Origin: a virus
Taxonomy: Duplodnaviria; Heunggongvirae; Uroviricota; Caudoviricetes
IMG/VR virus record: IMGVR_UViG_3300032250_000269
Coordinates: 25,069 to 89,068 of that record
DNA: 64,000 nucleotides
Direction: 5' to 3' (one strand)
Shown: piece after piece, positions 9,960-62,276 of the stretch
Position numbering within the stretch: position 1 is the first letter of the stretch
Layout of the letters: each line of letters begins with the position of its first letter
Translations under genes and position numbers: made by a program
Notes under the pieces: model-generated
Seen by the model: the letters and a program-made list of their open reading frames with translations, nothing else
The model's database searches: none
What the model was told of the DNA's origin: nothing

Positions 9960-10901
9960 ATGATACTTGCAAAAGCACCACTTCGTGTTAGTTTTTTTGG
10001 TGGGGGTAGTGATATCCCCACCCATTTTTTAAAGTGGGGCGGTTCTACTATCTCCATGGCTATTGACAAATACGTCTATGTTGTTGTTATGCCAACTCCT
10101 CATAATTATATAAAGGTATCATATTCAAAGCAAGAATGTGTCACAAATGTTGATGATTTGCAGAATGATATTATAAAAAACACATTGAAGTTTTTTGGTA
10201 TTAAATCTAATATAGAAATAAACACATTTGCTGATATCCCAACCGTAGGAACAGGTCTTGCCGGTTCTTCTGCATTTACTTGTGCTTTAGTAAAGGCATT
10301 AAGTGCGTTTGTTGGTAATGAATATCATGATTCATATGATATAGCAAAAATTGCATGTCATATTGAGATTAATATGTGCGGTTGGAATATTGGTATGCAA
10401 GATCAATATGCTGCTGCTTTTGGCGGAATGAACTATATTCAATATTCTGATAAAAACATTCTTGTTCATAAAATGAATGTCAATCAAATTGATGAATATA
10501 TGTTGTTGATTCCAACCAATATTCAAAGACATTCTTCAAAAGTCCTTGACAATGTTAATTTTTCAGATAAAGCTTCTTGTATATGGAGTCTATCTGATAT
10601 AGCTGATGATGAATATAAAAATATTCCTTCTTTATGTCAATATGGAAAATTGTTAGAGAAATCTTGGGACTTGAAAAAGCAGATGGATTCTGGTATATCC
10701 AATCCAGAGATTGATGCCATGTATGATAAGTGCATGAACCACGGTGCTGTTGGTGCCAAATTGCTTGGCGCTGGTGGTGGTGGATATATGCTAGCTCTAA
10801 CAGAAGATCGTGCTAAAATCAAAGAAGCATTTTCTGATCGTGTGTGTCTAAATGTTTCTGTTTCACATGAAGGAACCAAAATTGTATATAGAGAGCCTTG
10901 A
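9960..10901 (+). CDS. hddA: GHMP sugar kinase, D-glycero-D-manno-heptose 7-phosphate kinase-like (HddA family)
   Basis: APLRVSFFGGGSDIP N-terminus and GxGSSAA, GAGGGG GHMP motifs. Confidence 0.72.
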   Translation: MILAKAPLRVSFFGGGSDIPTHFLKWGGSTISMAIDKYVYVVVMPTPHNYIKVSYSKQECVTNVDDLQNDIIKNTLKFFGIKSNIEINTFADIPTVGTGLAGSSAFTCALVKALSAFVGNEYHDSYDIAKIACHIEINMCGWNIGMQDQYAAAFGGMNYIQYSDKNILVHKMNVNQIDEYMLLIPTNIQRHSSKVLDNVNFSDKASCIWSLSDIADDEYKNIPSLCQYGKLLEKSWDLKKQMDSGISNPEIDAMYDKCMNHGAVGAKLLGAGGGGYMLALTEDRAKIKEAFSDRVCLNVSVSHEGTKIVYREP

Positions 10902-17432: not shown

Positions 17433-17956
17433 TCAATAAGAAGCCCGTTCAAATCGAACGTGGCATGAGGGGCAATCATAAGAATTATGATGAAGAGGAA
17501 AAAAACATCTATGATCCTCTAGCCAAAGAGGCGATGATTGCGACCCTAAACAGAGCATTTACTCGCCTGCATCATATTGAAAACCCAAATCCACATGGGA
17601 TTGACGTTCTTTCAATTAATGAAGACGGTAAGGTTTCTGCTTGTTGGGAACTAGAAGTTCGTCATGGCAACTGGCAGGGCGATAAGCCATTCCCTTTCAA
17701 GAAGGTGAATTGCATCGAACGCAAGGATCATCAATGGCGCAGAGACCAACAATTCTTAGATAATATTCCATATGAGATGGCAGACAAGTACAAGGTTTTC
17801 TATGTTCAAATGAACAAGGAATGTACTAGAGCGGCTATTATCAATGGTAACACTGTTCTCAAGTATCCATTGAAATCATGGGACAATCGTAAGCAATTTG
17901 GTGAATTTGTCAGACAGGTTCCGATTGAAGAAGCAATTCAGATAAAATTGGGTTGA
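17429..17956 (+). CDS. hypothetical protein (possible restriction-endonuclease-like fold)
   Basis: 175 aa; GIDVL...ELEVRHG pattern is only suggestive. Confidence 0.5.
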   Translation: MINKKPVQIERGMRGNHKNYDEEEKNIYDPLAKEAMIATLNRAFTRLHHIENPNPHGIDVLSINEDGKVSACWELEVRHGNWQGDKPFPFKKVNCIERKDHQWRRDQQFLDNIPYEMADKYKVFYVQMNKECTRAAIINGNTVLKYPLKSWDNRKQFGEFVRQVPIEEAIQIKLG

Positions 17957-18004
17957 CATTAAAACCGAATCATTTTATATCTCTTTCATCAAGACGAAAG
18001 GGAA
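17953..18004 (+). promoter_or_regulatory. consensus early promoter plus conserved leader
   Basis: TTGACA-N17-TATATC with CGAATC spacer box, then TTCATCAAGACGAAAGGGAA. Confidence 0.6.
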
Positions 18005-18009
18005 ATGAA

Positions 18010-18165
18010 ATGACCGTAAACGATCTTATCAACGCTCTTCAGGCAAACATCGATAACTACAAGGCAATCATTAATGATCCTAACAGCGATGTTGATCATG
18101 TTGAACGTCTCAAGCGTGTAGTCGTTCGTTATGAAGCAGACATTCTTGAACTGAAAGGTGAGTAA
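18010..18165 (+). CDS. hypothetical small protein
   Basis: 51 aa; ATG sits at the conserved leader motif (GACGAAAGGGAA-ATG). Confidence 0.45.
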   Translation: MTVNDLINALQANIDNYKAIINDPNSDVDHVERLKRVVVRYEADILELKGE

Positions 18166-18166
18166 G

Positions 18167-18358
18167 ATGGAATATCAAACTTTCAATGCTCCTGTCGAAC
18201 CTAAGTGGCCTGATTATGGTTGCAACATCTATAAGGATGGTGTCTTTATTGAAGGTCGCATCTATCCTAACTATAGCGGTAATGCTATGATGGATGAGGT
18301 CAAAGACCTTAAGAGTTTTACCTTCCCTCCCTCTGAGGGTTATGAAGTAAGGTGGTGA
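18167..18358 (+). CDS. hypothetical small protein
   Basis: 63 aa, RBS AAAGGTGAG. Confidence 0.45.
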   Translation: MEYQTFNAPVEPKWPDYGCNIYKDGVFIEGRIYPNYSGNAMMDEVKDLKSFTFPPSEGYEVRW

Positions 18359-18360
18359 AT

Positions 18361-18801
18361 ATGAAAAAAGGCGAACTTCTTGGAAATGTTCTTGTTCTAG
18401 CAACCAATGCACATGCAGGACAGTTTGATCGTGGTGGCAAGCCATATATCCTTCATCCTCTTAAGGTTATGCATTATCTCAAGAGTGATGATGAGGAACT
18501 TCAGTGTATGGCACTACTTCATGATGTGGTAGAAGATACTAAGACTACTTGGCATGATCTAGTTGCTATTGGATGCACAGAACGTGTTATCAATGGTGTA
18601 AAGGCTCTTACCAAGATGCCCGGTGAAAGCTATGATCAATACAAGGATCGTGTTTTTGCGAATGAAGATGCGATGAAGGTAAAGATGGCTGATCTTCGCC
18701 ACAACACAGACATTCGCAGACTCAAGGGAGTTACGGAAAAAGATATGATCCGTATGGAAAAATACAACCGCTTCTATATCGAACTTCAAGCCAAAGTCTA
18801 A
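18361..18801 (+). CDS. HD-domain phosphohydrolase (RelA/SpoT-type (p)ppGpp hydrolase-like)
   Basis: HPLKVMHYL...ALLHDVVEDT HD motif. Confidence 0.7.
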   Translation: MKKGELLGNVLVLATNAHAGQFDRGGKPYILHPLKVMHYLKSDDEELQCMALLHDVVEDTKTTWHDLVAIGCTERVINGVKALTKMPGESYDQYKDRVFANEDAMKVKMADLRHNTDIRRLKGVTEKDMIRMEKYNRFYIELQAKV

Positions 18802-18805
18802 AGAA

Positions 18806-18838
18806 AATCCCTCAGAGAAATCTGGGGGATTTTTTTTA
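18806..18838 (+). terminator. rho-independent terminator
   Basis: CCCTCAGAGAAATCTGGGGG hairpin plus T8. Confidence 0.7.
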
Positions 18839-18848
18839 TCTTTTTTTG

Positions 18849-18905
18849 TTGACACGAATCACGAATCATTATATATTCTCTTCATCAAGACGAGAAAGGG
18901 ACTTC
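18849..18905 (+). promoter_or_regulatory. consensus early promoter plus conserved leader
   Basis: TTGACA CGAATCACGAATCATTA TATATT ... TTCATCAAGACGAGAAAGGGAC. Confidence 0.65.
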
Positions 18906-18907
18906 AA

Positions 18908-19267
18908 ATGGCTTACATGAACCAAGAAACCAAGAAGGCAATTGCTCCGGTTGTGAAGAACATTCTTAAGAAGTATGGCCTTAAGGGCACTCTTGGTGTC
19001 CGTCATTACAGCACTCTGGTTCTCAACATTACTGAAGGCAAGATTAACTTTCTTGAAGGTCAGGACCGGAATTACACCAGCGTCAATCCTTACTGGTTTC
19101 ATGAACACTTTGATGGTGTTGCCAAGGATTGTCTGACTGAAATCATCACCGCCATGAACAACGGCAACTGGAATAACAGCCGCATTGAGGTTGATTTTTT
19201 TGATATTGGTTGGTATATTGATGTGAACATTGGTAAGTGGGGCAAGCCCTACAAGTATGCAGCATAA
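18908..19267 (+). CDS. hypothetical protein
   Basis: 119 aa, driven by the consensus promoter and leader. Confidence 0.55.
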   Translation: MAYMNQETKKAIAPVVKNILKKYGLKGTLGVRHYSTLVLNITEGKINFLEGQDRNYTSVNPYWFHEHFDGVAKDCLTEIITAMNNGNWNNSRIEVDFFDIGWYIDVNIGKWGKPYKYAA

Positions 19268-19278
19268 GGAGATTTGAT

Positions 19279-19497
19279 ATGGCATATGCAATTCGTAGTG
19301 ATAATGGCCGGGTGTTTTTGAGTGTTGGCAATTCGGATGCTAAACATCTTATGGATATATTGCCGGGTCATTTTCAACAAAAAACTTTTACTAATACCGG
19401 CAAGAAGACAGTATTTGTGGTTGACTGTGATTGTCAAATCACTTATGGTAATGCAACAATCTGTTTTAAAGAAAAAGATTATTTTTTCCCAATGTAA
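19279..19497 (+). CDS. hypothetical small protein
   Basis: 72 aa; RBS AAGGAGATTTGAT-ATG. Confidence 0.45.
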   Translation: MAYAIRSDNGRVFLSVGNSDAKHLMDILPGHFQQKTFTNTGKKTVFVVDCDCQITYGNATICFKEKDYFFPM

Positions 19498-19508
19498 AGG
19501 ATTTTGAA

Positions 19509-19814
19509 ATGAGTCGTGGTAAGTATAGTCCAGCACTTAGCCGTAAGGATGCAGATCGTCCTTACAGTGCATATTGCTACAATGCTGATAAGCAAATTCC
19601 TCCTGAAACATGGGCGGAAGGCGAATATGATCATCGTACACATTTTGCCAACTATGATGAAAATGGCTATGATAGATATGGATATAGTGCCTTTTTAGAA
19701 GATGGTACATTCATTGGTCTTGGTCAGGGAATTGATCGTTGGGGATACACTGAAGATGAATATCTTACAATGAGCTATGAAGAATTTGAAGATATTTGTT
19801 TGAGTGGTGGATGA
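19509..19814 (+). CDS. hypothetical protein (Tyr/Asp/Glu-rich)
   Basis: 101 aa. Confidence 0.5.
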   Translation: MSRGKYSPALSRKDADRPYSAYCYNADKQIPPETWAEGEYDHRTHFANYDENGYDRYGYSAFLEDGTFIGLGQGIDRWGYTEDEYLTMSYEEFEDICLSGG

Positions 19815-19830
19815 AAGGAAAAATTAATTG

Positions 19831-19885
19831 TTGACATAGAATCGGCATAGTGTATACTCTCTTCATCAAGAACGGAGATTACACT
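19831..19885 (+). promoter_or_regulatory. consensus early promoter plus leader
   Basis: TTGACA-N16/17-TATACT then TTCATCAAGAACGGAGA. Confidence 0.6.
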
Positions 19886-20536
19886 ATGTCGATTTTTCTT
19901 AATTCTGATCAGATTCGCAAGATTGCTGAAGACAACGCAGTTTCCTACAATGTTGCTAACCTTTATGCTGAATATGTCGCAAAGGCTAAGAAGAAGAATG
20001 TAGTCTTGAACATGGGTCGTAACACTCTTCGTGACAGTACCCAACAGAAGACTTACAACGCTGAAAACAAGTTCATGTCTAAGTATGGTCGTGGCGGGTA
20101 TTTCTCTACTGTAGAAGAAGCTCAGAAGTTCGCTGACAAGGTGTTTGCTTCGAAGGTGTGGGAAAAGCACAAGACCAATCGGGTTAGCCGCACCTCTCCC
20201 CGTATCGAATATTCCAGCAAGATGACACGTTATAGCGGTATGGCTTATAGCAATCACATTTCGCTTGGTCGTACTGGTATGAACGTTTACATCCTCCTTC
20301 ATGAACTGGCTCATACCAATGGCCATCGTCATCATGACTCGTCTTTCCGCAAGTGCCTTGTTGCCTTTGTCGCTAAGTTCATGGGTAAGGAAGCCGGTGA
20401 ACTTCTTAAGAAGGAATTCAAGGATGCTGGTCTTAAGATGACTATTCCTAGTGCTAAGCCTGTGAAGGAATTTAAGGATTGGTATGCATTCTATAAGAGG
20501 GCTGAAGTTGCTCGCTACGCACGAAACAATTCTTAA
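19886..20536 (+). CDS. putative HExxH zinc metallopeptidase-like protein
   Basis: ILLHELAHTNGHRHH; driven by the consensus promoter. Confidence 0.5.
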   Translation: MSIFLNSDQIRKIAEDNAVSYNVANLYAEYVAKAKKKNVVLNMGRNTLRDSTQQKTYNAENKFMSKYGRGGYFSTVEEAQKFADKVFASKVWEKHKTNRVSRTSPRIEYSSKMTRYSGMAYSNHISLGRTGMNVYILLHELAHTNGHRHHDSSFRKCLVAFVAKFMGKEAGELLKKEFKDAGLKMTIPSAKPVKEFKDWYAFYKRAEVARYARNNS

Positions 20537-20545
20537 AATAATTTG

Positions 20546-20604
20546 TTGACACGAATCAACGAATCGATTATTGTCCTTTCATAGAAAGAGAAAAGGAATT
20601 CAAA
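20546..20604 (+). promoter_or_regulatory. consensus early promoter plus leader variant
   Basis: TTGACA CGAATCAACGAATCGAT TATTGT. Confidence 0.55.
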
Positions 20605-20943
20605 ATGCAAGTTATGGTTATTCATACTGATCGTGAAACCAACAAGCAGGAAGTTGTTGCTACTGTTGAGTTTGATGGTAACAACCCGATCAACGCTATG
20701 GATTATGCTTATCGTTGGACCAACAATATTGATGGTTCGTGGTCGCAGGGTGAAGATATCGTGATTGATGGTCATCTTTATGAGAACCCTGATTTCAATC
20801 CTAATGTCAAGGTTCTTGCTCCTCTTCCTAATCATCTTGGTCGCACTTATGGAATTCGTTCTACTTCTGTTGGCGATATCATGATTATCAATGGTGAAGC
20901 TTACAGGGTTGCTTCGTTTGGTTTCGAGAAGGTGGAGGGTTAA
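20605..20943 (+). CDS. hypothetical protein
   Basis: 112 aa; consensus promoter upstream. Confidence 0.5.
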   Translation: MQVMVIHTDRETNKQEVVATVEFDGNNPINAMDYAYRWTNNIDGSWSQGEDIVIDGHLYENPDFNPNVKVLAPLPNHLGRTYGIRSTSVGDIMIINGEAYRVASFGFEKVEG

Positions 20944-20944
20944 G

Positions 20945-21277
20945 ATGGATATCGAAAAGCTTGTTGCAGAATACGGTGCTATCAATCTTCGATTTTTTAT
21001 TCCAATGCGTAGAATGCATTCTTTGCATGGGTTTGGTATTCCTATGGCATTTACAAGCAGTGACGATCCTTATGACACTACAGAATGTGTAATTGATGAG
21101 GATCGCTACAAGGTTGCTGATGGGTACAAGATTACCTTTCGTGCCATCGATGAAAATTATGGTTATAAACACTGGTATCAGATGGACTTCAATAACATCT
21201 ATAGGCGTAAAAAAGAAATTCGTGTCTATGTTCTTGTAGATGAAGATAACAAGTATGAGAAAGTAGAGGTTAAGTAA
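20945..21277 (+). CDS. hypothetical protein
   Basis: 110 aa. Confidence 0.5.
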   Translation: MDIEKLVAEYGAINLRFFIPMRRMHSLHGFGIPMAFTSSDDPYDTTECVIDEDRYKVADGYKITFRAIDENYGYKHWYQMDFNNIYRRKKEIRVYVLVDEDNKYEKVEVK

Positions 21278-21278
21278 T

Positions 21279-21668
21279 ATGCCATGTGTTAGTGATTATA
21301 TGGAGCCTACTGGTAAGGAGCGTAAGCTTCAACAGACTGCACAGCTTCTAGAGTATGCACTATTTGAGCTTAACCTTCCTATTCCTAGTAAGGTTAAGAC
21401 TGCTTCTAGTAACATCTATTGTCATTTAGATTTGGTTCCTGATCTTTGTGAACTTATTACCAACATGAATGATCTTCAGCGTGATCGTGTAGTTTACAAT
21501 GCCTATAACAAACAGTCACGTGAACTGGCTCATTGGTGGGAGAATCATCAGGAAGCTGATCGTAAGCGTATTGCTGCTGATATGGAAAAGGCTGATCGAC
21601 AATCTTTGATTGAAAGCGCCAAGTCCAAGTTGACTGATGCTGAACGTAAGGCACTTGGTCTTGGGTAA
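21279..21668 (+). CDS. hypothetical protein
   Basis: 129 aa. Confidence 0.5.
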   Translation: MPCVSDYMEPTGKERKLQQTAQLLEYALFELNLPIPSKVKTASSNIYCHLDLVPDLCELITNMNDLQRDRVVYNAYNKQSRELAHWWENHQEADRKRIAADMEKADRQSLIESAKSKLTDAERKALGLG

Positions 21669-21714
21669 GCGTTCAGATTTCGAGAGAGTTGAAAGAGACT
21701 ATTATCCCAGCCCA

Positions 21715-22185
21715 ATGAAGGCAGTACTGCCGTTGCTACCACACTTGGCAAGGGGAACACACTTCATTGAGCCTTGTGCTGGTGATGGTCGTCTTATTGA
21801 TCATCTAGAGGCACATGGGCATAGATGTACAAGTGCTTCTGATATTGAACCTATACCACCCATGACAAGGATTGGTGACGCAACCACCATGAAGTACAAT
21901 CATAGTGGCCACCAGTACTTTATTACCAATCCACCATGGGATAGAAAGATTCTTCATCCTATCATTGAAAATCTCAGCAATCAGTTGCCTACATGGCTTT
22001 TGTTTGATGCTGATTGGATGCACACAAAGCAAGCAACACCCTACTTGACACGACTCGAAAAGGTCGTTAGTATCGGTAGGGTAAAGTGGATTGAAGATAG
22101 CAAGTCTGTCGGTAAGGATAACTGTTGTTGGTATCTGTTCTGGCATAAGAATGATATTCAGACACAATTTTTTGGAAGAACGTAA
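21715..22185 (+). CDS. DNA N6-adenine (or N4-cytosine) methyltransferase, small
   Basis: Motif I FIEPCAGDGRL then motif IV NPPW; about 156 aa from internal ATG. Confidence 0.65.
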   Translation: MKAVLPLLPHLARGTHFIEPCAGDGRLIDHLEAHGHRCTSASDIEPIPPMTRIGDATTMKYNHSGHQYFITNPPWDRKILHPIIENLSNQLPTWLLFDADWMHTKQATPYLTRLEKVVSIGRVKWIEDSKSVGKDNCCWYLFWHKNDIQTQFFGRT

Positions 22186-22186
22186 T

Positions 22187-22399
22187 ATGAAGTTTTGGCT
22201 GGTACTAATGATCTTTAATTTGAACGGCCATTTTCTTTATAAGAAAGAAATTCCTTTTAAAACTCGTGTAGAATGTGTGCAAGCTGCTGGTCAAAAAGCA
22301 AAGAAATTTGTAAACAAATCGGTTGCAGTCTCGTCGTTTTGTGTTACTGATAATCATCATAGAGGGATTTCTGTTGATCCGGGAATTCCTCTAGACTAA
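22187..22399 (+). CDS. small secreted/membrane protein
   Basis: Hydrophobic N-terminus MKFWLVLMIF. Confidence 0.4.
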   Translation: MKFWLVLMIFNLNGHFLYKKEIPFKTRVECVQAAGQKAKKFVNKSVAVSSFCVTDNHHRGISVDPGIPLD

Positions 22400-22410
22400 G
22401 GATTAAACAA

Positions 22411-22614
22411 ATGCTGAATTTTATCAAATGGTTTGGTACTCTGTGTATAATTTTAGCCGCATTTTCTAGATCGGCTAATTATCATACATTTGACATGGTA
22501 CTATCTATTATCGGTGCTTCTATATGGGCATACGCTGCGGTACGTGTAAAGGATAAAGCACTTCTGGTAGTGAATGTTTTTATTCTTATCATTCTTATTT
22601 TTGGACTTTTATAA
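22411..22614 (+). CDS. small membrane protein (two TM)
   Basis: 67 aa hydrophobic. Confidence 0.45.
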   Translation: MLNFIKWFGTLCIILAAFSRSANYHTFDMVLSIIGASIWAYAAVRVKDKALLVVNVFILIILIFGLL

Positions 22615-22626
22615 AAGGATTTTGTT

Positions 22627-22995
22627 ATGTGGTATGATCAGACTGACATTAAGGAAATGGAAGGCAAGACCTTCACTCGTGTGTATGAACTTGATAATGA
22701 TACTTTGGTCTTTGAAAACGAAGATTATCGTTACACTTTCTATCACTCGCAGGACTGTTGTGAGTACGTGTATATCGAAAGTATCGTTGGTGATCTTGAC
22801 GATCTTGTTGGTTCACCTCTGCTTCTTTCTGAGGAAGTTAGCAGTGATGAAGGTCCACTTAATGAATATGAAGAATCATACACTTGGACGTTCTACAAGT
22901 TTGCGACAATCAAGGGCTATGTAGACGTTCGCTGGTATGGTATTTCCAATGGTTATTATTCTGAGAGCGTACAGCTTAGAAGAGAAAATGCGTGA
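22627..22995 (+). CDS. hypothetical acidic protein
   Basis: 122 aa. Confidence 0.5.
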   Translation: MWYDQTDIKEMEGKTFTRVYELDNDTLVFENEDYRYTFYHSQDCCEYVYIESIVGDLDDLVGSPLLLSEEVSSDEGPLNEYEESYTWTFYKFATIKGYVDVRWYGISNGYYSESVQLRRENA

Positions 22996-23210
22996 TCAAT
23001 CCTCGTATCAAGGAAATTGGTGAGCAGGTTGGCTTGTATATGGAACCCCACTATCAAGGTGGGTTTCCAAACGAGCAACTTATTTCAGCTTTGCAATTTG
23101 CAGACTTGATTGTACGTGATTGTCTTGATATAATGCAAAACTGTGATGGCGATCTGGATTTTGCTATCTGGTTGTTGAAAGATAGGTTTGGTGTTGACAC
23201 CCCTTCCTGA
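22992..23210 (+). CDS. hypothetical small protein
   Basis: 72 aa. Confidence 0.45.
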   Translation: MINPRIKEIGEQVGLYMEPHYQGGFPNEQLISALQFADLIVRDCLDIMQNCDGDLDFAIWLLKDRFGVDTPS

Positions 23211-23247
23211 ATGATATAGAATAATTCTATCAACAAAGGAAAAAATT

Positions 23248-24435
23248 ATGAACTACAAATTCCCTATCATTACGAATATCAGCGACGTACTTCCTGCTAT
23301 TGAAGGTAGGGATGAGTTCGTTGTGGCTGTCAAGGAAGGCTATACTGTCATCAACTACAATGTGATGATGGCTGATACGTTTCCTGCTATTCACAGCGAT
23401 TTCTTGGACGCTGGTTGGCATGAAGATGTAAATGCAGCACTTCGTCGTGAATGTCGTGGTATCATCTTTGATACTGCTACTGGCAACATCATTCGTCGTC
23501 CGTTCCATAAATTTTTTAATGTATCGGAAAGAGAAGAAACCCAAGTAAATGTGATTGATTTGTCTCGTCCTCATGCTATTCTTGATAAGCTTGACGGGAG
23601 CATGATATGCCCATTTATTGTCAACGGACAAATGATTTGGGGTACCAAGATGGGTGCTACTGATGTGTCAAAGCCTGTTGAGGAGTTTGTGAAGAACAAT
23701 CCTGAGTATATTCGCTTTGCTGAAGAAGCGATTGCAAATGAATGGACTCCTATCTTTGAATGGTGCTCACGAAAGCAGCGTATTGTTCTAGATTATTTTG
23801 AAGATCAATTGGTTCTCACTGCTATGCGCCACCTTAACACTGGTTCGTATGCCCTTCATGATAATCTGGTAGAATTGGGTAAGGCATTCGAAATTCCTGT
23901 AGTTCGTGCATTCGAACCGCAGACTGATATGAAGGCATTCATCGAATACGTTCGTGATCTAGAAGACCTTGAAGGTTATGTGGTTCGTTTTGGCGATGGT
24001 CATATGATCAAGCTGAAGTGTGATTGGTATGTCCAAATTCATAAGGCTAAGGAAGCTATTCTACAGGATCGCAACATTGTTGAGTTGATCCTTGACGAAA
24101 AGCTGGACGATATCAAGGCACATCTCCCTGCTGAAGATCGTGATCGTCTGTCTCAGTTTGAAAATGACTTCAATGTTGAAGTGGCTTGTAGGTGTATTGA
24201 GATTGAAAGCATTCTGAAGAACATTGAGGCTGATGGTGTTGATCGCAAGACGTTTGCTCTTGAAATTGCTCCTAAGTTTGATAATTTTCTTCGTGCATCA
24301 GTATTTACCTGTTGGGATGATAAGTCCAAGGTATATAATACTGTACGCAACACAATTCGCAACAATCTTGGTCGTACAGTCAAGTACGAAGCAATTCGTG
24401 ATGTTTGGTTTCCGGGGGTAGTTTTCAATGGTTAA
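23248..24435 (+). CDS. rnlA: RNA ligase (T4 Rnl1-like nucleotidyltransferase)
   Basis: Motif I LDKLDGSM (KxDG) and size (395 aa) similar to T4 RNA ligase 1. Confidence 0.65.
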   Translation: MNYKFPIITNISDVLPAIEGRDEFVVAVKEGYTVINYNVMMADTFPAIHSDFLDAGWHEDVNAALRRECRGIIFDTATGNIIRRPFHKFFNVSEREETQVNVIDLSRPHAILDKLDGSMICPFIVNGQMIWGTKMGATDVSKPVEEFVKNNPEYIRFAEEAIANEWTPIFEWCSRKQRIVLDYFEDQLVLTAMRHLNTGSYALHDNLVELGKAFEIPVVRAFEPQTDMKAFIEYVRDLEDLEGYVVRFGDGHMIKLKCDWYVQIHKAKEAILQDRNIVELILDEKLDDIKAHLPAEDRDRLSQFENDFNVEVACRCIEIESILKNIEADGVDRKTFALEIAPKFDNFLRASVFTCWDDKSKVYNTVRNTIRNNLGRTVKYEAIRDVWFPGVVFNG

Positions 24436-24622
24436 CAAGTCTGACTTTATTGGTATTCTAGTCCTGCATTGGATGGTTTTTGCACTTGCATTCCTTGGAT
24501 TTGCAGCATATATGGATGTTAGAAATATGAATAACAAACTTCAATATGTGCAGTATTTCCAAGAGTCTATAACCAGCCATGATCTTCAAGATATCATGTG
24601 TAACGGGAGTCCAGTAGGATGA
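24428..24622 (+). CDS. small membrane protein
   Basis: 64 aa, hydrophobic segment. Confidence 0.4.
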   Translation: MVNKSDFIGILVLHWMVFALAFLGFAAYMDVRNMNNKLQYVQYFQESITSHDLQDIMCNGSPVG

Positions 24623-24804
24623 CATTTGAACAATGGTTTGATAAAGAATACCCTGAGTCAGATTTTGCAACCCATATGATTATCATTCGTCTTTCATTGA
24701 AAGAAGTTGCTCAGAAGGCATGGACCACTGCTTGGGAAGACGGCCACAGTGCTGGTGTTTCTGCACAAGCCGGTTGGCAAGATTATTTGGATAATTACGA
24801 ATGA
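24619..24804 (+). CDS. hypothetical small protein
   Basis: 61 aa. Confidence 0.4.
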   Translation: MTFEQWFDKEYPESDFATHMIIIRLSLKEVAQKAWTTAWEDGHSAGVSAQAGWQDYLDNYE

Positions 24805-25067
24805 GTCTCGAAAAATCAATCTATGAAGCATGGGATAATGCTTTGCAAAATGGATATGAAGAATGGCTGTTGGAAGCTAGCACTATTGACATAGCCGTTG
24901 ATATGATGGATTGTGATGGTGATATTGAGTTGTATTCAAATGGAATGATTGATGTTGTTGTTGGTCATATCGACACTCTTCAATTAAATTATCGAAGGGA
25001 AGTTTATGGTAATTTTCCAGAAGATTATATGAAATTAGGTCTTTATAGGAAAAATAAAAATGGCTAA
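24801..25067 (+). CDS. hypothetical protein
   Basis: 88 aa. Confidence 0.4.
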   Translation: MSLEKSIYEAWDNALQNGYEEWLLEASTIDIAVDMMDCDGDIELYSNGMIDVVVGHIDTLQLNYRREVYGNFPEDYMKLGLYRKNKNG

Positions 25068-25290
25068 GTTTATTCTTGCTAAAGATGATGAAAATCAGGG
25101 TCCATATCAATGGACCAATGTCAATCGCCGTGACTATTTCGGTTGGGAGGGTGCATGGGCAGAATCATTTGCCTCTGAAGAATGGGCTATTTTTGCTGCT
25201 GAACAACGCACAAAAGAAGGTTGGATTGTTGACTGCTATCATAACGTAGGGTATACGGTGAATAGCAATTATGGAGAAGATAATGCGTAA
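25060..25290 (+). CDS. hypothetical protein
   Basis: 76 aa. Confidence 0.4.
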   Translation: MAKFILAKDDENQGPYQWTNVNRRDYFGWEGAWAESFASEEWAIFAAEQRTKEGWIVDCYHNVGYTVNSNYGEDNA

Positions 25291-25768
25291 GTGTACAATT
25301 CTTGTTGGTGTTCCTGCTTCTGGCAAGTCAACATGGCTTAAAAATAATTATGAAAATATGGAGTTTGGTTCGATTGTTGCATCAACCGACAATATTATTG
25401 AAGAATTGGCTGATATGTTTGGATTTACATACAATGATGTTTTTTCAGAAACTATCAGGTTTGCTGATATGGTTATGAACAACAATTTGATTGTAGCAGC
25501 AGAAGATGGTGTAGATATTTACGTTGATCGTACTAATCTTTCTCAAAAGTCTCGTCGTCATTTTATTAAAACTCTCAAGCCATATGGGTATACTTTTGAT
25601 GATGTGGTTTTTGAAACTCCTGAAAAGGATGAATGGAAACGCCGTTTGAATTCTCGTTGTGGAAAGTCTATTCCAAATGATGTTATTGATAGGATGGTGA
25701 ATAGCTACGAAATTCCTTTGGAAAACGAAGGGTTTGAAAAAATCACTTTTATTGAAAATAATGTTTGA
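25283..25768 (+). CDS. P-loop kinase (polynucleotide-kinase-like kinase domain)
   Basis: Walker A GVPASGKST; about 161 aa. Confidence 0.6.
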   Translation: MRKCTILVGVPASGKSTWLKNNYENMEFGSIVASTDNIIEELADMFGFTYNDVFSETIRFADMVMNNNLIVAAEDGVDIYVDRTNLSQKSRRHFIKTLKPYGYTFDDVVFETPEKDEWKRRLNSRCGKSIPNDVIDRMVNSYEIPLENEGFEKITFIENNV

Positions 25769-25821
25769 CACGAATCGTTAATAGTTTTATATTGTGTTCA
25801 ACAAGACGAAAGGAACACAAT
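25765..25821 (+). promoter_or_regulatory. consensus early promoter plus conserved leader
   Basis: TTGACA CGAATCGTT.. TATATT then GTTCAACAAGACGAAAGGAAC. Confidence 0.65.
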
Positions 25822-26130
25822 ATGACTATCAACACTGGCTACAAGTTCTACTCTGATCCCGGTCATGGTTGGTTGGCAGTGTCTTTCAAGAACTTCTTTG
25901 CCGTTGGTGCAAAGCTTGAAGACGTTTCCAACTTCTCGTATGCACGTGGCAAGACGCTGTATCTTGAAGAAGATTGTGATGCTGGTGTCTTCATCAAGGC
26001 TTTTCGTGAGAAGATGGGTACTGATCCTATTTTCTTTGAGAAGTTTCATGAACGCACCGCCATTCGTTCGTATCAGCCGTTGTTTTTTGTCGGCACTCGT
26101 GAAAAGATTGCCGCTGGTGAAGCTGTCTAA
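25822..26130 (+). CDS. hypothetical protein
   Basis: Consensus promoter and leader upstream. Confidence 0.5.
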   Translation: MTINTGYKFYSDPGHGWLAVSFKNFFAVGAKLEDVSNFSYARGKTLYLEEDCDAGVFIKAFREKMGTDPIFFEKFHERTAIRSYQPLFFVGTREKIAAGEAV

Positions 26131-26141
26131 GGAGATTTGAT

Positions 26142-26354
26142 ATGGATACTACTGCACGTTGGGATGAAAATGTCCTCATGGTCCGCTGGTATGGTAGCTC
26201 GACCGAAGATGAAGCTGCATATCTTTTCATTAAGAATGGTACATATCGTCTAGAACTTGATGGGTATGAAGAAACTTTTTTTAAGACATATCCAACCAAG
26301 CCTACTGCTGAAGAAGCTCTTATGTCAGTACTTAAGTGGCAAAGCGGTTATTAA
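26142..26354 (+). CDS. hypothetical small protein
   Basis: Same AAGGAGATTTGAT-ATG junction as 19279. Confidence 0.45.
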   Translation: MDTTARWDENVLMVRWYGSSTEDEAAYLFIKNGTYRLELDGYEETFFKTYPTKPTAEEALMSVLKWQSGY

Positions 26355-26365
26355 GGAATTTTATC

Positions 26366-26581
26366 ATGATTACTGAAACTGGCGATTACCTAACTCGGGA
26401 TGGTACCAAAGTGACTATTCATGAGATTCGTCTAGGCACTTCCACGTTCGAAGCAAAGGGTAGTGTTTGGAAAATGTTTCGTGGAAAACTTCGTCCACGT
26501 GGCTTTAATATTTGGAAAACTGATGGACAACACATGGCTGTTGGTGTACATCGTCTAGACATTGTTGAAAGGATTTTTTAA
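26366..26581 (+). CDS. hypothetical small protein
   Basis: 71 aa. Confidence 0.45.
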   Translation: MITETGDYLTRDGTKVTIHEIRLGTSTFEAKGSVWKMFRGKLRPRGFNIWKTDGQHMAVGVHRLDIVERIF

Positions 26582-27036
26582 TGCGTGTTTCTGTTGAATA
26601 TAGCCAATACTGTACTCATGATTATCACTCGGGTGAAAAGTATGGTGATTGGGAAAAGCAGTACGATTCCAGTGTAACTGGTGTTCGTGTTCTTCGTGAA
26701 GATGAAGAGTCTGGTTATAGCAGCGAGACTTTTCTTCTCCCTGATGATGCTACTACTGCCTATGTTGTTTATATGATTTATAGCAGTGGTGATAGCTTTG
26801 GTCGTTCTGATGGTGAAATCGATATCCTTCACTGCACTGCAAGTTCCGATAAGGCACATGCTCTTGCAAAGATGGTGACTGACAACCCGAATGAATATTC
26901 GATCAAGTTCACTGATGATTTTGATCGTGAAGTCAGCATCTACAACCGTGGTGCTGGATATTTTGAACGTATTGAATATGTTGAGGTGCTTTCGTTTGAT
27001 CTAAACGGTAGTCCTCGTCGTTATCGTGTAAACTAA
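26581..27036 (+). CDS. hypothetical protein
   Basis: 151 aa. Confidence 0.5.
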   Translation: MRVSVEYSQYCTHDYHSGEKYGDWEKQYDSSVTGVRVLREDEESGYSSETFLLPDDATTAYVVYMIYSSGDSFGRSDGEIDILHCTASSDKAHALAKMVTDNPNEYSIKFTDDFDREVSIYNRGAGYFERIEYVEVLSFDLNGSPRRYRVN

Positions 27037-27051
27037 GAAAGGAAATATATT

Positions 27052-27567
27052 ATGACACATTTTGTTGGACTCGTTATTGCTGATACCGTAGAAGAGATTG
27101 CTTCTCTCCTTGCTCCTTATGATGAAAATATGGATGTAGAATCGTACTTTGAACCTGTAGAGGTTGAGGGTATGGTTGAATATGCCAAGGAAAAGAAAGT
27201 AGAATTTACCAATCCTATCGATCTGGTAGAGTGGTGGGATGGCAAACCCGGTGTTATCAATGAAGCTGGTGAAATCGGCTATATGAGCACCTACAACCCC
27301 GATTCGAAGTGGGATTGGTATGTTGTTGGTGGTCGTTGGGATGATGTTGTCGTAGGCAATCGTTGCCTTGCTGAAGATGTTGAAAGCACCTTTGAGCCTT
27401 TGGGTTACATTCCTTCTGTGATCGTTGATGCTGATGGTTGGCATCAGGCAAAGGAATGGGGTTGGTTTGGTTCATCTAGCCCTGTAGAAGGTAATGAGAA
27501 CATCGTTCGTGAGAAGCTTGCTCAGCACAAGGGTAAGAATGTTTTCATCGTAGATTTCCACATCTAA
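27052..27567 (+). CDS. hypothetical acidic protein
   Basis: 171 aa. Confidence 0.5.
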   Translation: MTHFVGLVIADTVEEIASLLAPYDENMDVESYFEPVEVEGMVEYAKEKKVEFTNPIDLVEWWDGKPGVINEAGEIGYMSTYNPDSKWDWYVVGGRWDDVVVGNRCLAEDVESTFEPLGYIPSVIVDADGWHQAKEWGWFGSSSPVEGNENIVREKLAQHKGKNVFIVDFHI

Positions 27568-27585
27568 AAAATAATCAAAAAATGT

Positions 27586-27646
27586 TTGACAGTCCTTTCC
27601 GACTCATGTAGAAGAAATTCAACAGAGACGGAAAGGACTTTTTTTA
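27586..27646 (+). promoter_or_regulatory. promoter embedded in a terminator-type hairpin
   Basis: TTGACA then stem GTCCTTTCCG...CGGAAAGGAC plus T7; -10-like TAGAAG lies in the loop. Confidence 0.5.
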
Positions 27647-27960
27647 TGACCAAGCTCATCGCAATCAAGGAAGAAAGCAACTTCAAGCAGCAGTACAAGA
27701 TCGTGTCTGCTTCGAACCGGAACTTCACCTATGGCCGCATTCGCTTCGAACCGTTTGGTCCTCATGGTGCTGGTTGGAATGTTCGTTGCAGCGAAAATGA
27801 TGAAGACCTTGAACGTCTGGTTCGTGCCAAGTTCTTTCAGAATGGTCGTCGTTTTCCTATGAAGAAGGCTTTCGATCTTTTTGTTGAAGCGCAGGAAGAA
27901 CTGGAAATCGAATACAAGGCTGATCGTAATTCTTGGGAACGTTCGATGGAAATGGCATAA
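27646..27960 (+). CDS. hypothetical protein
   Basis: 104 aa; promoter overlaps a terminator hairpin. Confidence 0.5.
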   Translation: MTKLIAIKEESNFKQQYKIVSASNRNFTYGRIRFEPFGPHGAGWNVRCSENDEDLERLVRAKFFQNGRRFPMKKAFDLFVEAQEELEIEYKADRNSWERSMEMA

Positions 27961-27966
27961 TAGCTG

Positions 27967-28023
27967 TTGACACGAATCACGAATCATTATATATTCTCTT
28001 CATCAAGACGAAAGGAACTTCAC
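27967..28023 (+). promoter_or_regulatory. consensus early promoter plus conserved leader (near-identical copy of 18849)
   Basis: TTGACACGAATCACGAATCATTATATATTCTCTTCATCAAGACGAAAGGAAC. Confidence 0.65.
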
Positions 28024-28377
28024 ATGGGCGTTTATCAGTACACACTTCGCAAGGAAACCAAGACCGTTGATGGCATGAAGATTGGCCGTTATGGTTATGC
28101 TTACAAGCACTCTTATTTCCGCCACTACAATCAGGATCGCTATGCTACCATGTACAACCGTCTGGTTGGCAGTGTTGAAGCAGCGGCTGATCGTGCTTTT
28201 GAAGCCAATGCTGATCTGGAATACGCTGCCATTGGTGAATGGAAGTATGCCAATGAAGGTGAAGGTCTGACTGTCATCAAGGTCAAGAATGCTTCTTTCG
28301 CTGATGATACCGCCAAGCATGAAGTGGTCGGTTATCTGAAGAAGGAAGGCCGCAAGTTCAAGTTCGTGAGGGCGTAA
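28024..28377 (+). CDS. hypothetical protein
   Basis: 117 aa; consensus promoter and leader. Confidence 0.5.
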   Translation: MGVYQYTLRKETKTVDGMKIGRYGYAYKHSYFRHYNQDRYATMYNRLVGSVEAAADRAFEANADLEYAAIGEWKYANEGEGLTVIKVKNASFADDTAKHEVVGYLKKEGRKFKFVRA

Positions 28378-28874
28378 TGAAAATTTATGTTGATGACATT
28401 ATTCCTCAGTGGAAAGTCACCAAGGCTAAGAAACTGATCAAGAAATCTCTTCCTTATCTGAAGAAGGAATTTTGCTTTCCTAAGAATGTTGAAATTCGAC
28501 TTCAGGAAAGAGCACCAGATGAAGATAAAAAGCTTACTCTTGGTGAAGTTGTGAAGTTTACGAATGGTAATTATGCTTGCATTCTAAACCTGAATAATGA
28601 TGGTTATAGTTTGATAGAAACCCTTTCTCATGAATTCACACATATTGAGCAGATGTGGCAATGTCGTTTAGCTAAGTCAGCACATTGTTATCATTGGATG
28701 GAAAATGATAAGACTATCAGAAGGGTTGACAAGGCAACCAGTTTTGAAGAATATCGAAATTATCCTTGGGAGATTGAAGCACGTAAGCGTGGGCGTGATT
28801 TCAAAAATAAGTACCGTGCAGTGATTGATCCCACTATCAAGGATCGTGTTAAGAAGTTTTTTGGTTTCATTTGA
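28377..28874 (+). CDS. hypothetical protein with HExxH motif (SHEFTHIEQ)
   Basis: 165 aa. Confidence 0.45.
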   Translation: MKIYVDDIIPQWKVTKAKKLIKKSLPYLKKEFCFPKNVEIRLQERAPDEDKKLTLGEVVKFTNGNYACILNLNNDGYSLIETLSHEFTHIEQMWQCRLAKSAHCYHWMENDKTIRRVDKATSFEEYRNYPWEIEARKRGRDFKNKYRAVIDPTIKDRVKKFFGFI

Positions 28875-28887
28875 AAGGAAATATATT

Positions 28888-29481
28888 ATGGGTACTCGTC
28901 ATCTTATTGCTGTACAAAAGAATAATTCGTATAAGGTCGCTCAGTATGGACAGTGGGATGGTTATCTCTCTGGTCAGGGTGATAGCATTCTAAAGTTCTT
29001 CCACGAAAACGATCTTGAAGTTTTTCGTACCAAGATTGATAATTGCTTCTTTGGAACTGAAGAGCAAATCAATGAAGCATTTGCTGCATACAGCACTGAT
29101 GGTTGGATGACTTTTGAACAGTCCAAGGCTTTTAAGGAATCGCAGTTTGGTCATCTCAGTCGTGATACTGGTTCTGATATTCTTGATATCATCATGAAGT
29201 CTGATGGTCCTCTTATGATGACCGACAACATCGATTTCGCTAAGGATTCACTGTTCTGCGAGTATGCTTACGTGATCGATCTTAATCGCAATGTTCTTGA
29301 AGTTTATGAGGGTTTTAACGAGGAACCGATTGAACCCGGTCAGCGTTTCTATTCTGAAGAAAATAAAGATGGGTATTACCCCGTCAAGCTTGTGAAGGAA
29401 TACAGCCTGTTCGATCTTCCCGAAAACTTCGATGAACTTGAAAAGGAACTTAATCCTGAAGAGGGCGAGGAAGAAGAGTAA
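28888..29481 (+). CDS. hypothetical acidic protein
   Basis: 197 aa. Confidence 0.5.
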   Translation: MGTRHLIAVQKNNSYKVAQYGQWDGYLSGQGDSILKFFHENDLEVFRTKIDNCFFGTEEQINEAFAAYSTDGWMTFEQSKAFKESQFGHLSRDTGSDILDIIMKSDGPLMMTDNIDFAKDSLFCEYAYVIDLNRNVLEVYEGFNEEPIEPGQRFYSEENKDGYYPVKLVKEYSLFDLPENFDELEKELNPEEGEEEE

Positions 29482-29498
29482 AAAACTAAAAAAAGTTC

Positions 29499-29581
29499 TT
29501 GACCCGAATTACGAATCATTTTATATAAGGTTCATCAAGAGGGCATGGTGCTTCTCTGATAGTGAAAAAAGGAATTATATT
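29499..29581 (+). promoter_or_regulatory. promoter (TTGACC) with long leader
   Basis: TTGACC CGAATTACGAATCATTT TATATA then GTTCATCAAGAGGG... 60-nt leader. Confidence 0.55.
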
Positions 29582-40684: not shown

Positions 40685-40755
40685 ACAATCCCTATATACA
40701 AGAAATCACTCAGATAGACTGTGTGATATATTTTAACACAAAGGAGTTTTGTGGA

Positions 40756-48122: not shown

Positions 48123-48353
48123 ATGTCTACTGAACTCAAGGGTGTTACTGGTCGTACTGGTAAAGTTTCGATGCTTAGCTTTTTTGGCGGTAAGGAAGAC
48201 GGAAGGTGCGTTCAAATGACTTTCAGGAAGCCTGATGAAGAAAAGTGCAGCAGCCGGTACTGGTATCTGCAACTGACTAAAGAAGAAGCACTGGAAATGG
48301 CGGTTGCGCTGGTCCAGTTTGCTAATGGAACTAGAGAAGAAGTTTTTGACTGA
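48123..48353 (+). CDS. hypothetical small protein
   Basis: Consensus promoter and leader upstream. Confidence 0.45.
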   Translation: MSTELKGVTGRTGKVSMLSFFGGKEDGRCVQMTFRKPDEEKCSSRYWYLQLTKEEALEMAVALVQFANGTREEVFD

Positions 48354-48370
48354 TTAATGTAAAATAGTTG

Positions 48371-48418
48371 TTGACATAAAGACAACGAATCGCTATAATC
48401 AGTTCAACAAAAAGTTAA
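48371..48418 (+). promoter_or_regulatory. consensus promoter driving the large non-coding region
   Basis: TTGACA TAAAGACAACGAATCGC TATAAT CAGTTCAACAAA. Confidence 0.6.
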
Positions 48419-49622: not shown

Positions 49623-49697
49623 GCCAGTATAGCTCAGCGGTAGAGTAGGGGACTCATATTCCCTTGGTCGCTAGTTCGATCCTAGCTACTGGCACCA
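49623..49697 (+). tRNA. tRNA with CAU anticodon (Met or Ile-lysidine)
   Basis: Acceptor GCCAGTA/TACTGGC, loop CTCATAT, T-loop TTCGATC. Confidence 0.65.
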
Positions 49698-49761
49698 ATT
49701 TATGGGCTGACGGTCTAGAACCCGTTGAGCATCGAAAGATGTAGTCAGTCCACCATATTAT

Positions 49762-49837
49762 GCCCCTGTAGCTCAGTTGGTAGAGCACTTGATTGAAGAT
49801 CAGGGTGTCAGCGGTTCAATTCCGTTTGGGGGCACCA
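49762..49837 (+). tRNA. tRNA-Phe (GAA)
   Basis: Arm CTTGA-TTGAAGA-TCAGG, T-arm AGCGG-TTCAATT-CCGTT, acceptor ends TGGGGGC-A-CCA. Confidence 0.65.
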
Positions 49838-49971
49838 AAGTTTGGGTCTAAATAGAGTAAATAGGGAACCTATTGAATGTCGAACTGCTGGTAAAACCGT
49901 TAAATGTCACCTATGACATGCAGGACACAAGACCCAATTCATTTAATAATTAACTTGACGAGGAAAACATA

Positions 49972-59999: not shown

Positions 60000-60173
60000 A
60001 TGGATGTTTTTGATACCCCACATTTTAAAAAGTCTTTCTGGGAATGGTTCGATGCTCTACCAAAACAGGAACGTAAAAAGTTTCAGGAATATCCTGCTGA
60101 TATGGCAGAGCTAAACTTTTATAACAGAGTGTACAAAAATTTGGTTGACAAAGTTGATTCGTCCCTATATTAA
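60000..60173 (+). CDS. hypothetical small protein
   Basis: 57 aa. Confidence 0.3.
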   Translation: MDVFDTPHFKKSFWEWFDALPKQERKKFQEYPADMAELNFYNRVYKNLVDKVDSSLY

Positions 60174-60175
60174 CA
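60145..60175 (+). promoter_or_regulatory. promoter-like TTGACA-N16-TATATT upstream of helicase
   Basis: TTGACAAAGTTGATTCGTCCCTATATT. Confidence 0.45.
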
Positions 60176-60203
60176 ATAGGACAGACAATCAAAGGAATAT
60201 ATT

Positions 60204-62220: not shown

Positions 62221-62276
62221 TTGACACTCCCCTTCGAATCGTTCATAGAGAATGCATTCGAGGGGGAGTTTTTTTA
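62221..62276 (+). promoter_or_regulatory. promoter embedded in a terminator-type hairpin
   Basis: TTGACA then stem CTCCCCTTCGAAT...ATTCGAGGGGAG plus T7; CATAGA in the loop. Confidence 0.5.

Follow-up and report, generated by a model that had tools for sequence, protein, structure and literature searches.

Repeated promoter modules of an uncultured T4-like phage carry a spacer box resembling the site of the cell-cycle factor GcrA

A 64,000-nt window of an uncultured phage genome (Caudoviricetes; positions 25,069 to 89,068 of IMG/VR record IMGVR_UViG_3300032250_000269) contains about 20 promoter modules of the sigma70 type, many of which carry a short box, CGAATC or a variant of it, in the spacer between the -35 and -10 hexamers. 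This box behaves as a selected element, and its sequence corresponds to the site of GcrA, a sigma70-bound cofactor that activates promoters with CcrM-methylated GANTC sites (PMC4647560). We propose, at a probability of roughly 0.45, that the box is read by the GcrA/CcrM system and that the phage would in this way tie its early genes to an epigenetic switch of its host. An earlier note on this DNA had interpreted the box as a phage-specific regulator site, which is unsupported as stated: the box matches the host GcrA site over seven positions, and in placement and orientation as well. When infection begins, immediate-early promoters have no factors to draw on but those of the host and those injected with the phage DNA; a phage-encoded reader is the less probable alternative.

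A scan of the whole window found the modules on the + strand and in a single layout. Each consists of AT-rich upstream DNA, TGTTGACA, a 17-nt spacer, TATAww, three variable bases and the block TTC-A(+1)-WCAAGA; in modules that precede protein genes, this start block is followed by (C)GAAAGGAAC, with the ATG 5-6 nt further on. They have TTGAC(A/C/G/T) and TAnAww at a spacing of 17 nt (16 in one copy, 15 in one), and none has an extended -10 (TGn). Nine lie within 17953-29581 (P17953 to P29499, each named after the start of its -35) and the others among the tRNA genes at 40-62 kb (P40110 to P62221; Table 1). When 32 non-redundant modules from the window and its relatives were aligned on the -10, three information peaks of similar height emerged, at TGTTGACA, TATA and TTC-ATCAAGA. 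The earlier note was right that a repeated promoter module exists, far beyond chance, and its description of sigma70-type promoters of an early-gene regulon, with more conserved information than sigma70 needs, is supported. Its count of at least 15 promoters applies to the whole window and not to the interval 17953-29581 for which it was given, and its -10 of TATA(A/T)T stands for the TATA core but not for the last T, which is present in only about half of copies. We predict that the modules serve as immediate-early promoters read by the host housekeeping RNA polymerase.

Outside tRNA genes, CGAATC is found almost exclusively in the promoter spacers. It occurs 30 times on the + strand of the window against 10.7 expected; 16 of these copies are in promoter spacers, 12 in tRNA genes and 2 elsewhere. 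A GANTC follows within 20 nt of 22 of the 92 TTGAC on the + strand, compared with 3.7 +/- 1.9 (maximum 12) at random positions and with only 1 of 81 on the - strand. Counted from the first T of TTGACA, these GANTC sites cluster at +7 (box A, which directly abuts the hexamer) and at +14 to +16 (box B, which starts 7-9 nt after it), so that the single range of 5-9 nt downstream of the -35 proposed earlier gives way to two positions. The box sequence is C-GAATC-R, or YGATTCG on the opposite strand. In coding DNA, avoidance of GANTC is only mild (89 vs 110, z = -2.9).

Comparison with relatives, taken from IMG/VR and from metagenomes (the L-numbered contigs below), points to selection on the box. 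These contigs have modules in common with the window, and their proteins are 60-94% identical. Orthologs of P17953 have GAATC, GAATC, GAATC and GAGTC at the same place in spacers that otherwise diverge, and where the proteins of orthologs are 60-90% identical, GANTC persists although neighboring bases have changed. The P29499 orthologs retain an intact box A and have lost box B, and at P29499 and P27967, box A and box B are exchanged between relatives. Because it is kept in orthologous promoters despite spacer divergence and moves between two positions, the box behaves as a selected cis-element. All four central bases are seen (GAATC, GACTC, GAGTC and GATTC) and the orientation is reversed once; these comparisons support the view that selection acts on GANTC and not on CGAATC as such.

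This unit, together with its flanks, is what connects the phage promoters to GcrA. The preferred GcrA site in Caulobacter is TGATTCG, or more broadly YGAKTCK (Haakonsen 2015, PMC4647560), and CGAATCA is the reverse complement of TGATTCG. YGAKTCK fits 20 of the 22 spacer GANTC sites (19 in one orientation) vs 36 of 121 elsewhere in the window (Fisher p = 7e-8). Even the divergent CGACTCA of P27586 is, read as its reverse complement TGAGTCG, another high-ranked GcrA site. Upstream GcrA sites lie in the -35/-10 spacer, centered at -20 +/- 1 and -30 +/- 2, while others lie at +5 to +30 (Wu 2018, PMC5887438; PMC9976885); counted from predicted start sites, box B is centered between -17 and -21, with its mode at -18/-19. 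The scaffold of the GcrA-RNA polymerase complex solved by cryo-electron microscopy, which is PcsM-derived, reads TTGACA-CCCGGG-CGm6AATC-CCTGC-TATAAT (Wu 2023, PMC9976885), and the phage layout is TTGACA-N7/8-CGAATC-N4/3-TATAww. The phage modules resemble Caulobacter GcrA/CcrM promoters in having a GANTC with YGAKTCG flanks in the spacer of a TTGACA-type promoter, the same hexamer in the same orientation as the scaffold, a center near -20 and sometimes a second site nearer the -35. They differ in being phage rather than host promoters, in that box A falls outside -30 +/- 2, and in having no sites at +5 to +30.

In the mechanism that we propose, the phage DNA, packaged in methylated form, would offer GcrA sites some 18-19 nt ahead of the start. 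It follows from this proposal that host holoenzyme loaded with GcrA would be captured preferentially at box promoters, and that open-complex formation would be helped at promoters with an imperfect -10. A more elaborate version, which we consider a long shot, is an epigenetic timer: boxes fully methylated in packaged DNA would fire at once and become hemi- or unmethylated after replication, turning early transcription off without a dedicated repressor. Methylation would then come from host CcrM or from an early phage methyltransferase that co-occurs with the boxes, and the tRNA genes and a large noncoding RNA, GOLLD, would fall under the same switch. If true, it would be the first demonstrated case of a phage coupling its temporal program to a host reader of cell-cycle methylation.

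The early methyltransferase in question is encoded at 21637-22185 (Table 1). It received no Pfam, NCBIfam or PDB assignment, only phrog_799. Its orthologs were found only in contigs with box-bearing promoters, and the syntenic stretch of the box-poor contig L008 lacks it; in this small sample, the co-occurrence is only a hint that the phage methylase and the boxes form one system. Inside this gene, at 22045-22073, is a further promoter-like arrangement, TTGACA-CGACTCG-N10-TAGTAT, with a box at position A.

Several observations weigh against GcrA as the reader. Box A, centered at about -26, lies between the two published GcrA windows and on another helix face, and box B in many promoters sits 1-2 bp nearer the -10 than does the site of the solved complex. 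Genes of the gcrA or ccrM type (PF07750, PF01555) were not found among the open reading frames of the window, in 10 kb upstream and about 7.5 kb downstream of it, or in the flanks of its relatives; the sole methyltransferase found belongs to a class other than the ccrM type. The presence of a box shows no association with a weaker -10 (p = 0.52). At P27586 and P62221 the box forms part of a hairpin arm, which may account for its presence. Moreover, several sister phages (L001, L003, L031, L044, L084, L108, L123 and most of L008) keep the -35, the -10 and the leader with no spacer GANTC, which shows that the box is dispensable for promoter function; it is an add-on of one sub-lineage, as judged from these contigs, and no requirement of the module. 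The search across related genomes that the earlier note had suggested therefore gives a divided answer: GANTC is kept in orthologous promoters, but a sister group has none. A metagenome scan with the leader returned 96 matches, of which about 90% are chance and a few are true modules, without the box.

Other phages also limit the generality of the arrangement. Neither Rhizobium phage RHph_I1_18 (50 kb) nor Sinorhizobium phage phiM12 (41 kb), both of which have GcrA-bearing hosts, is enriched for TTGAC-GANTC, so the arrangement is not general to alphaproteobacterial phages. One promoter-like site in phiM12 (L027), TTGACAgagatcaaacCGAATCaTATATCtct at 36101, closely resembles P17953. The T4-like phage Melnitz of the betaproteobacterium OM43, used as a negative control, has no GANTC in its promoter spacers. 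The phiCbK-like Caulobacter phages offer a precedent for a phage touching the GcrA/CcrM cell-cycle module of an alphaproteobacterial host (Gill 2012, PMC3556154), but they carry a GcrA homolog and no promoter sites have been described in them, whereas here we find candidate sites and no GcrA gene. A narrow full-text literature search yielded no paper joining GANTC sites to phage early promoters.

A GcrA-based mechanism presupposes a suitable host, since GcrA and CcrM are, in the accounts drawn on here, alphaproteobacterial. The window encodes a GapR-family (DUF2312) nucleoid-associated protein among its tRNA genes (54867-55106, + strand; not part of the promoters), which matches Pfam PF10073 at 2.3e-29, scores above the NCBIfam NF010247 cut-off and is identical in assemblies L028 and L029. 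GapR is described as an alphaproteobacterial protein. Among cultured phages, tblastn with GapR gave 115 matches, almost all in phages of Rhizobium, Agrobacterium, Ruegeria, Caulobacter, Brevundimonas and the like, and all 12 of the 12 matches in a species-representative genome set were in Alphaproteobacteria. The phage consensus gTTGAC-N17-tTATAT also agrees with that of S. meliloti sigma70 promoters, CTTGAC-N17-CTATAT (PMC2873474), and the final T typical of E. coli is missing from both. Best matches of other window proteins are partly to Sinorhizobium, Rhizobium and roseobacter phages and also to the OM43 phage Melnitz. Taken as sequence evidence, these matches make an alphaproteobacterial host likely; a phage-specific protein searched in reference genomes found no match, and GapR could have been acquired horizontally, a further point against the GcrA interpretation.

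Among other explanations for the box, the one that survives best is an operator for a phage-encoded or virion-injected DNA-binding protein, either a repressor that turns early promoters off or a co-activator, acting independently of methylation and GcrA. Restriction of the box to one sub-lineage, while the rest of the module is more widespread, would fit a lineage-specific phage factor, and the strongest copies contain tandem 7-bp direct repeats (ACGAATC ACGAATC). Relatives encode small helix-turn-helix or sigma70_r4-like proteins, and factors for early shut-off are expected in T4-like phages (PMC2988021). We nevertheless consider such an operator unlikely. We identified no candidate protein; the 7-bp site is of monomer size, single in most promoters and found at two positions; four central bases and one reversed orientation are what marks a GANTC site and not just any operator; and the exact seven-position match to YGAKTCG would have to be coincidence, at about 1 in 2000 for a random 7-mer.

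Alternatively, the box could be a core-promoter spacer element contacted by RNA polymerase, or a sequence setting spacer geometry, which would tune the strength of promoters that are already close to consensus, with no accessory reader. In E. coli, the beta' zipper of the polymerase has been described as touching a "Z-element" in the spacer, and box B, at about -22 to -16, lies just upstream of a would-be extended -10. T4 early promoters likewise carry extra consensus regions (PMC2988021). This explanation is improbable given that the same heptamer also occurs at position A, 7 bp away on another helical face, with promoters swapping A and B; that it is missing from sister phages whose -35, -10 and start block are the same; and that a variable central base is unexpected for direct contact. 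Least probable of all is that conservation is merely historical, the box hitch-hiking on recent copies spread by recombination or gene conversion of the PeSL type described below: although P18849 and P27967 are identical over 47 nt (given earlier as 50) ahead of genes unrelated to one another, different contigs contain identical modules, and insertions and deletions are bounded by modules, promoters of the tRNA region share only the blocks, their spacers being otherwise unrelated, flank preference is highly non-random, and the retention of GANTC in diverged orthologs largely refutes it.

Other candidate identities were tried and dropped: the alphaproteobacterial LexA box GAAC-N7-GAAC (wrong spacing), a site for integration host factor (no match) and kinship of the box to the tRNA T-arm GGTTCGAATCC (the hexamer alone in common). 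CtrA boxes, TTAA-N7-TTAA, are not enriched in the window (4 vs 3.5 expected).

The third conserved block lies at the predicted start site. The leader 20-mer is present in four copies at up to three mismatches (17985, 25797, 27999 and 48097), against none in shuffled sequence; the leader of P18849 has a 1-nt insertion, and the first half, TTCAWCAAGA, is exact in six copies. With few exceptions, the A of TTCA is found exactly 7 nt downstream of the -10 hexamer, and the block here is as well conserved as the -35. With its canonical distance, pyrimidine at -1 and purine at +1, this A is the probable transcription start, and the block resembles the starts of T7 A1 (ATCGAGAGGG) and T5 N25 (TTCATAAA). 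The predicted 5' untranslated regions are 21-25 nt, purine-rich and no more structured than shuffled sequence. The 3' half of the leader (GAAAGGA/AAAGGA) is a ribosome-binding site that also precedes internal operon genes. The start block stands before RNA genes as well, namely tRNA-Asn (P46604) and GOLLD (P48371), and must therefore be a promoter or initiation element rather than a translation signal. We read it as a start optimized for initiation and escape, joined at a fixed distance to a standard ribosome-binding site.

These results revise the account of the leader in the earlier note. Its eight copies were an overcount, its gap of 6-8 nt to the ATG is in fact 5-6 nt, and the leader, described there as transcribed, is predicted to be so only in part, its first three bases, TTC, lying upstream of the predicted start. 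Its suggestion of a conserved translation or RNA-stability element holds for the 3' half insofar as this is an ordinary ribosome-binding site, but not for the 5' half, which straddles the predicted start and also precedes RNA genes, in leaders that are unstructured.

A different explanation for the leader, compatible with any explanation of the box, is that AUCAAGACGAAAGGAAC is the target of a post-transcriptional regulator, either a RegA-type repressor or a RegB-like nuclease. Consistent with this, the 18-20-nt leader is unchanged in distant relatives from which the box is missing, whether lost or never acquired, and a clear T4 RegA homolog is encoded beside a gp62 homolog in relative L002. 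We find the proposal doubtful in view of the start block before tRNA-Asn and GOLLD RNA and of the 3' half, which equals the ribosome-binding site used by internal genes. In T4, RegA sites overlap the start codon, and the motif that overlaps start codons here is a different one, GGAAATATATTATG. This second translation-start motif, GGAnnTATATTATG, occurs in 8 copies vs 0.53 expected, exactly at 27041, 28877, 29571 and 57340 and with one mismatch at 8939, 41935, 54859 and 63341, and overlaps the start codons of genes that are internal or far from a promoter. It could serve as an operator for the RegA-type translational repressor of this lineage.

The modules as a whole are not without precedent. 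PeSLs, composites of AT-rich DNA, in some cases a stem-loop, and an early sigma70-like promoter with its ribosome-binding site and start codon (Arbiol 2010, PMC2839356; Comeau 2014, PMC4122927), are concentrated in hyperplastic regions of T4-like phages and implicated in modular gene shuffling (PMC4122927). This known architecture was missed in the earlier note. Gene content differs between the window and contigs L006, L007 and L009 at module boundaries, with block 18361-19811 absent from L007 and L009. The modules are best understood, from their organization, as PeSL-type cassettes in a hyperplastic early region, a known kind of element in which the spacer box is new. Like PeSLs, they occur in a T4-type genome in many conserved copies, in hyperplastic early regions and at the borders of insertions, deletions and replacements. 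Unlike PeSLs, only about one-quarter of copies have an upstream stem-loop and three hairpins are wrapped around the promoter; published descriptions include neither a conserved spacer box nor a conserved start-site block. Recombination between copies, by excision or integration of mini-circles, is a PeSL property that the modules may share.

P18849, P40110, P43584 and P55985 each have a strong terminator hairpin immediately upstream, and P46604 has a weaker one; other copies have no upstream hairpin. Hairpins instead enclose the promoter at P27586, P45281 and P62221, where inverted repeats of 14-15 nt surround the -10 and start (27591-27605/27625-27639, 45287-45301/45315-45329 and 62226-62269). 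The ribosome-binding site falls in the 3' arm of these repeats, and a T-run follows the repeat at P27586 and P62221; at P27586, this means that terminator and promoter overlap. Read-through transcripts would form a terminator or a hairpin sequestering the ribosome-binding site, whereas transcripts started inside would not. Around position 6164 of relative L001, the same promoter-enclosing architecture is found with different arm sequences, a compensatory change.

The promoters of T4 itself show both likenesses to the modules and differences from them. T4 early promoters have consensus regions beyond the sigma70 elements that are thought to optimize polymerase contacts (Hinton 2010, PMC2988021), and the phage modules, predicted to be very strong host-polymerase promoters with extra conserved regions, resemble them and would likewise be used at time zero. 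They differ in having no TGn, in a -35 that is TTGACA rather than the T4-type hexamer, and in carrying their extra information as a discrete methylation-site motif. T4 middle promoters, like the modules, have an accessory element between the -35 and -10 or near -30, which in T4 is read by a sigma70-bound factor and here would be; in T4, the MotA box TGCTT (centered at -30) replaces the -35. A MotA-box identity for the modules was dropped given their perfect TTGACA and the absence of TGCTT.

Table 1. Promoter modules and associated features of the window, with predicted starts (+1) and start codons. Promoter status is least certain for P62221.
Feature	Coordinates	Strand	Predicted +1	ATG	Elements and context
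P17953	17953..18009	+	17988	18010	TTGACA, box B CGAATCA, TATATC; leader ATCAAGACGAAAGGG
Terminator hairpin and T-run (PeSL-type stem-loop)	18799..18838	+			directly upstream of P18849
P18849	18849..18907	+	18884	18908	boxes A and B (CGAATCACGAATCA), TATATT
P19831	19831..19885	+	19865	19886	16-nt spacer, AGAATCG box, TATACT; some orthologs have TATAAT and no box
P20546	20546..20604	+	20581	20605	boxes A and B (CGAATCAACGAATCG), TATTGT
Early-region DNA methyltransferase	21637..22185	+			motif order EPCAGDG then NPPW; phrog_799
P23194	23194..23247	+			box-less, TAGAAT; upstream of Rnl1-type RNA ligase gene
P25765	25765..25821	+	25800	25822	box A only (CGAATCG), TATATT
P27586	27586..27645	+			CGACTCA box at position B; inverted repeat around -10 and start site
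P27967	27967..28023	+	28002	28024	boxes A and B, full leader TTCATCAAGACGAAAGGAAC
P29499	29499..29581	+			box A degenerate (CGAATT), box B intact; longer leader, ~48 nt to DUF932 gene
P40110	40110..40188	+			CGAATCA, TATAAT; just after strong terminator hairpin
P43584	43584..43640	+			box B, TATAAG; just after strong terminator hairpin
P45281	45281..45335	+			box-less; perfect 15-nt inverted repeat around -10 and start site
P46604	46604..46667	+	46639		box B, TATAAA; predicted +1 is 29 nt before tRNA-Asn
P48066	48066..48122	+		48123	CGAATCT, TACAAG, full leader
P48371	48371..49262	+	near 48406		box B CGAATCG, TATAAT; ORF-free stretch, then GOLLD RNA
P55815	55815..55869	+			AGAATCG, TATTAA
P55985	55985..56040	+			TTGACT, CGAATCG, TAAAAG; hairpin abuts -35
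P56674	56674..56730	+			CGAATCG, TATAAA
P60145, promoter-like	60145..60203	+			box reversed (TGATTCG), 15-nt spacer; upstream of UvrD-type helicase gene
P62221, promoter-like	62221..62275	+			CGAATCG, CATAGA; within 14-nt inverted repeat and T-run after tRNA-Ser

One of the modules precedes an RNA gene of unusual size. A full-length match to Rfam RF02032, the GOLLD RNA, spans 48783-49262 on the + strand (172 bits against a gathering score of 150, E = 1.5e-46), with a tRNA-Lys (48853-48927) embedded in it, and 48351-49971 is without a + strand open reading frame. The box-bearing P48371, about 380 nt upstream, probably drives this giant RNA, giving a predicted transcript of about 850 nt from near 48406. 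Such an assignment would make GOLLD expression experimentally approachable.

Repeated early promoter cassettes are known in T4-like phages; an inner motif equal to the optimal site of a host cell-cycle factor is not. If GcrA does read the box, the phage would be using the CcrM/GcrA epigenetic system to come out ahead in competing for polymerase, and perhaps also to set the timing of its early genes. The box would also serve as a sequence-only predictor of alphaproteobacterial hosts for an uncultured freshwater phage lineage, and the approximately 20 natural promoter variants, with box A, box B, both or none and all four central bases, would provide material for dissecting the effects of GcrA position and flanks.

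The lineage itself is that of a T4-superfamily myovirus from lake metagenomes, an uncultured freshwater group, as read from gene content: the flanks of relatives encode RegA next to gp44/gp62 homologs. In L002, the T4 RegA homolog (PF01818, 6.5e-46; 9994-10389, - strand) adjoins gp62/gp44 clamp-loader homologs, and gp44/gp62 clamp-loader domains and RegA are found in the flanks of module-sharing relatives. Cultured phages offered nothing closely related: searches by megablast with the region, by blastn with a single module and by tblastn with one HEAT-repeat protein gave no useful match, and ribonucleotide reductase matches were uninformative for taxonomy. Genes are densely packed in the window, almost all of them on the + strand, and G+C is about 39%. 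It encodes 28 tRNAs, nucleotide-metabolism enzymes (NrdA/B, Td, Frd and an NAD-salvage pair), an Rnl1-type RNA ligase, a T4-type RNase H and SegE-type endonucleases. Of these, RNase H, SegE, Rnl1, Td, Frd and NrdAB add to the evidence for a T4-type genome.

In addition to these genes, we noted a number of features in the window and its relatives. The NAD-salvage pair of NAMPT and NMNAT-Nudix (41946-43316 and 40723-41856) is as found in KVP40-like and roseobacter phages, and a stand-alone HD-domain protein (18352-18801) resembles the RelA/SpoT hydrolase domain. Two adjacent HEAT/LRV-type repeat proteins of 726 aa (36192-38372) and 545 aa (38391-40028), which have no tblastn match among cultured phages, are unusual content for a phage early region. 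The window helicase (60204-61721) has an identical counterpart near the end of L028 (ENA ERZ28593858 scaffold_13, 192,694 bp), a scaffold that is probably a near-complete phage genome and encodes dTDP-sugar genes (RmlA/RmlC/epimerase-like) downstream of the helicase. Elsewhere in relatives are a Tad3 anti-Thoeris domain, a protein combining CHASE2 with a nucleotide cyclase, and a small sigma70_r4/helix-turn-helix protein. Finally, GATC is not avoided in the window, but CCWGG is wholly absent (CCAGG 0 vs 21.5 expected, CCTGG 0 vs 30.5 expected); synonymous-codon shuffles of 74 genes contain 36 +/- 4 copies (z = -9), indicating very strong avoidance of this EcoRII/Dcm-type site.

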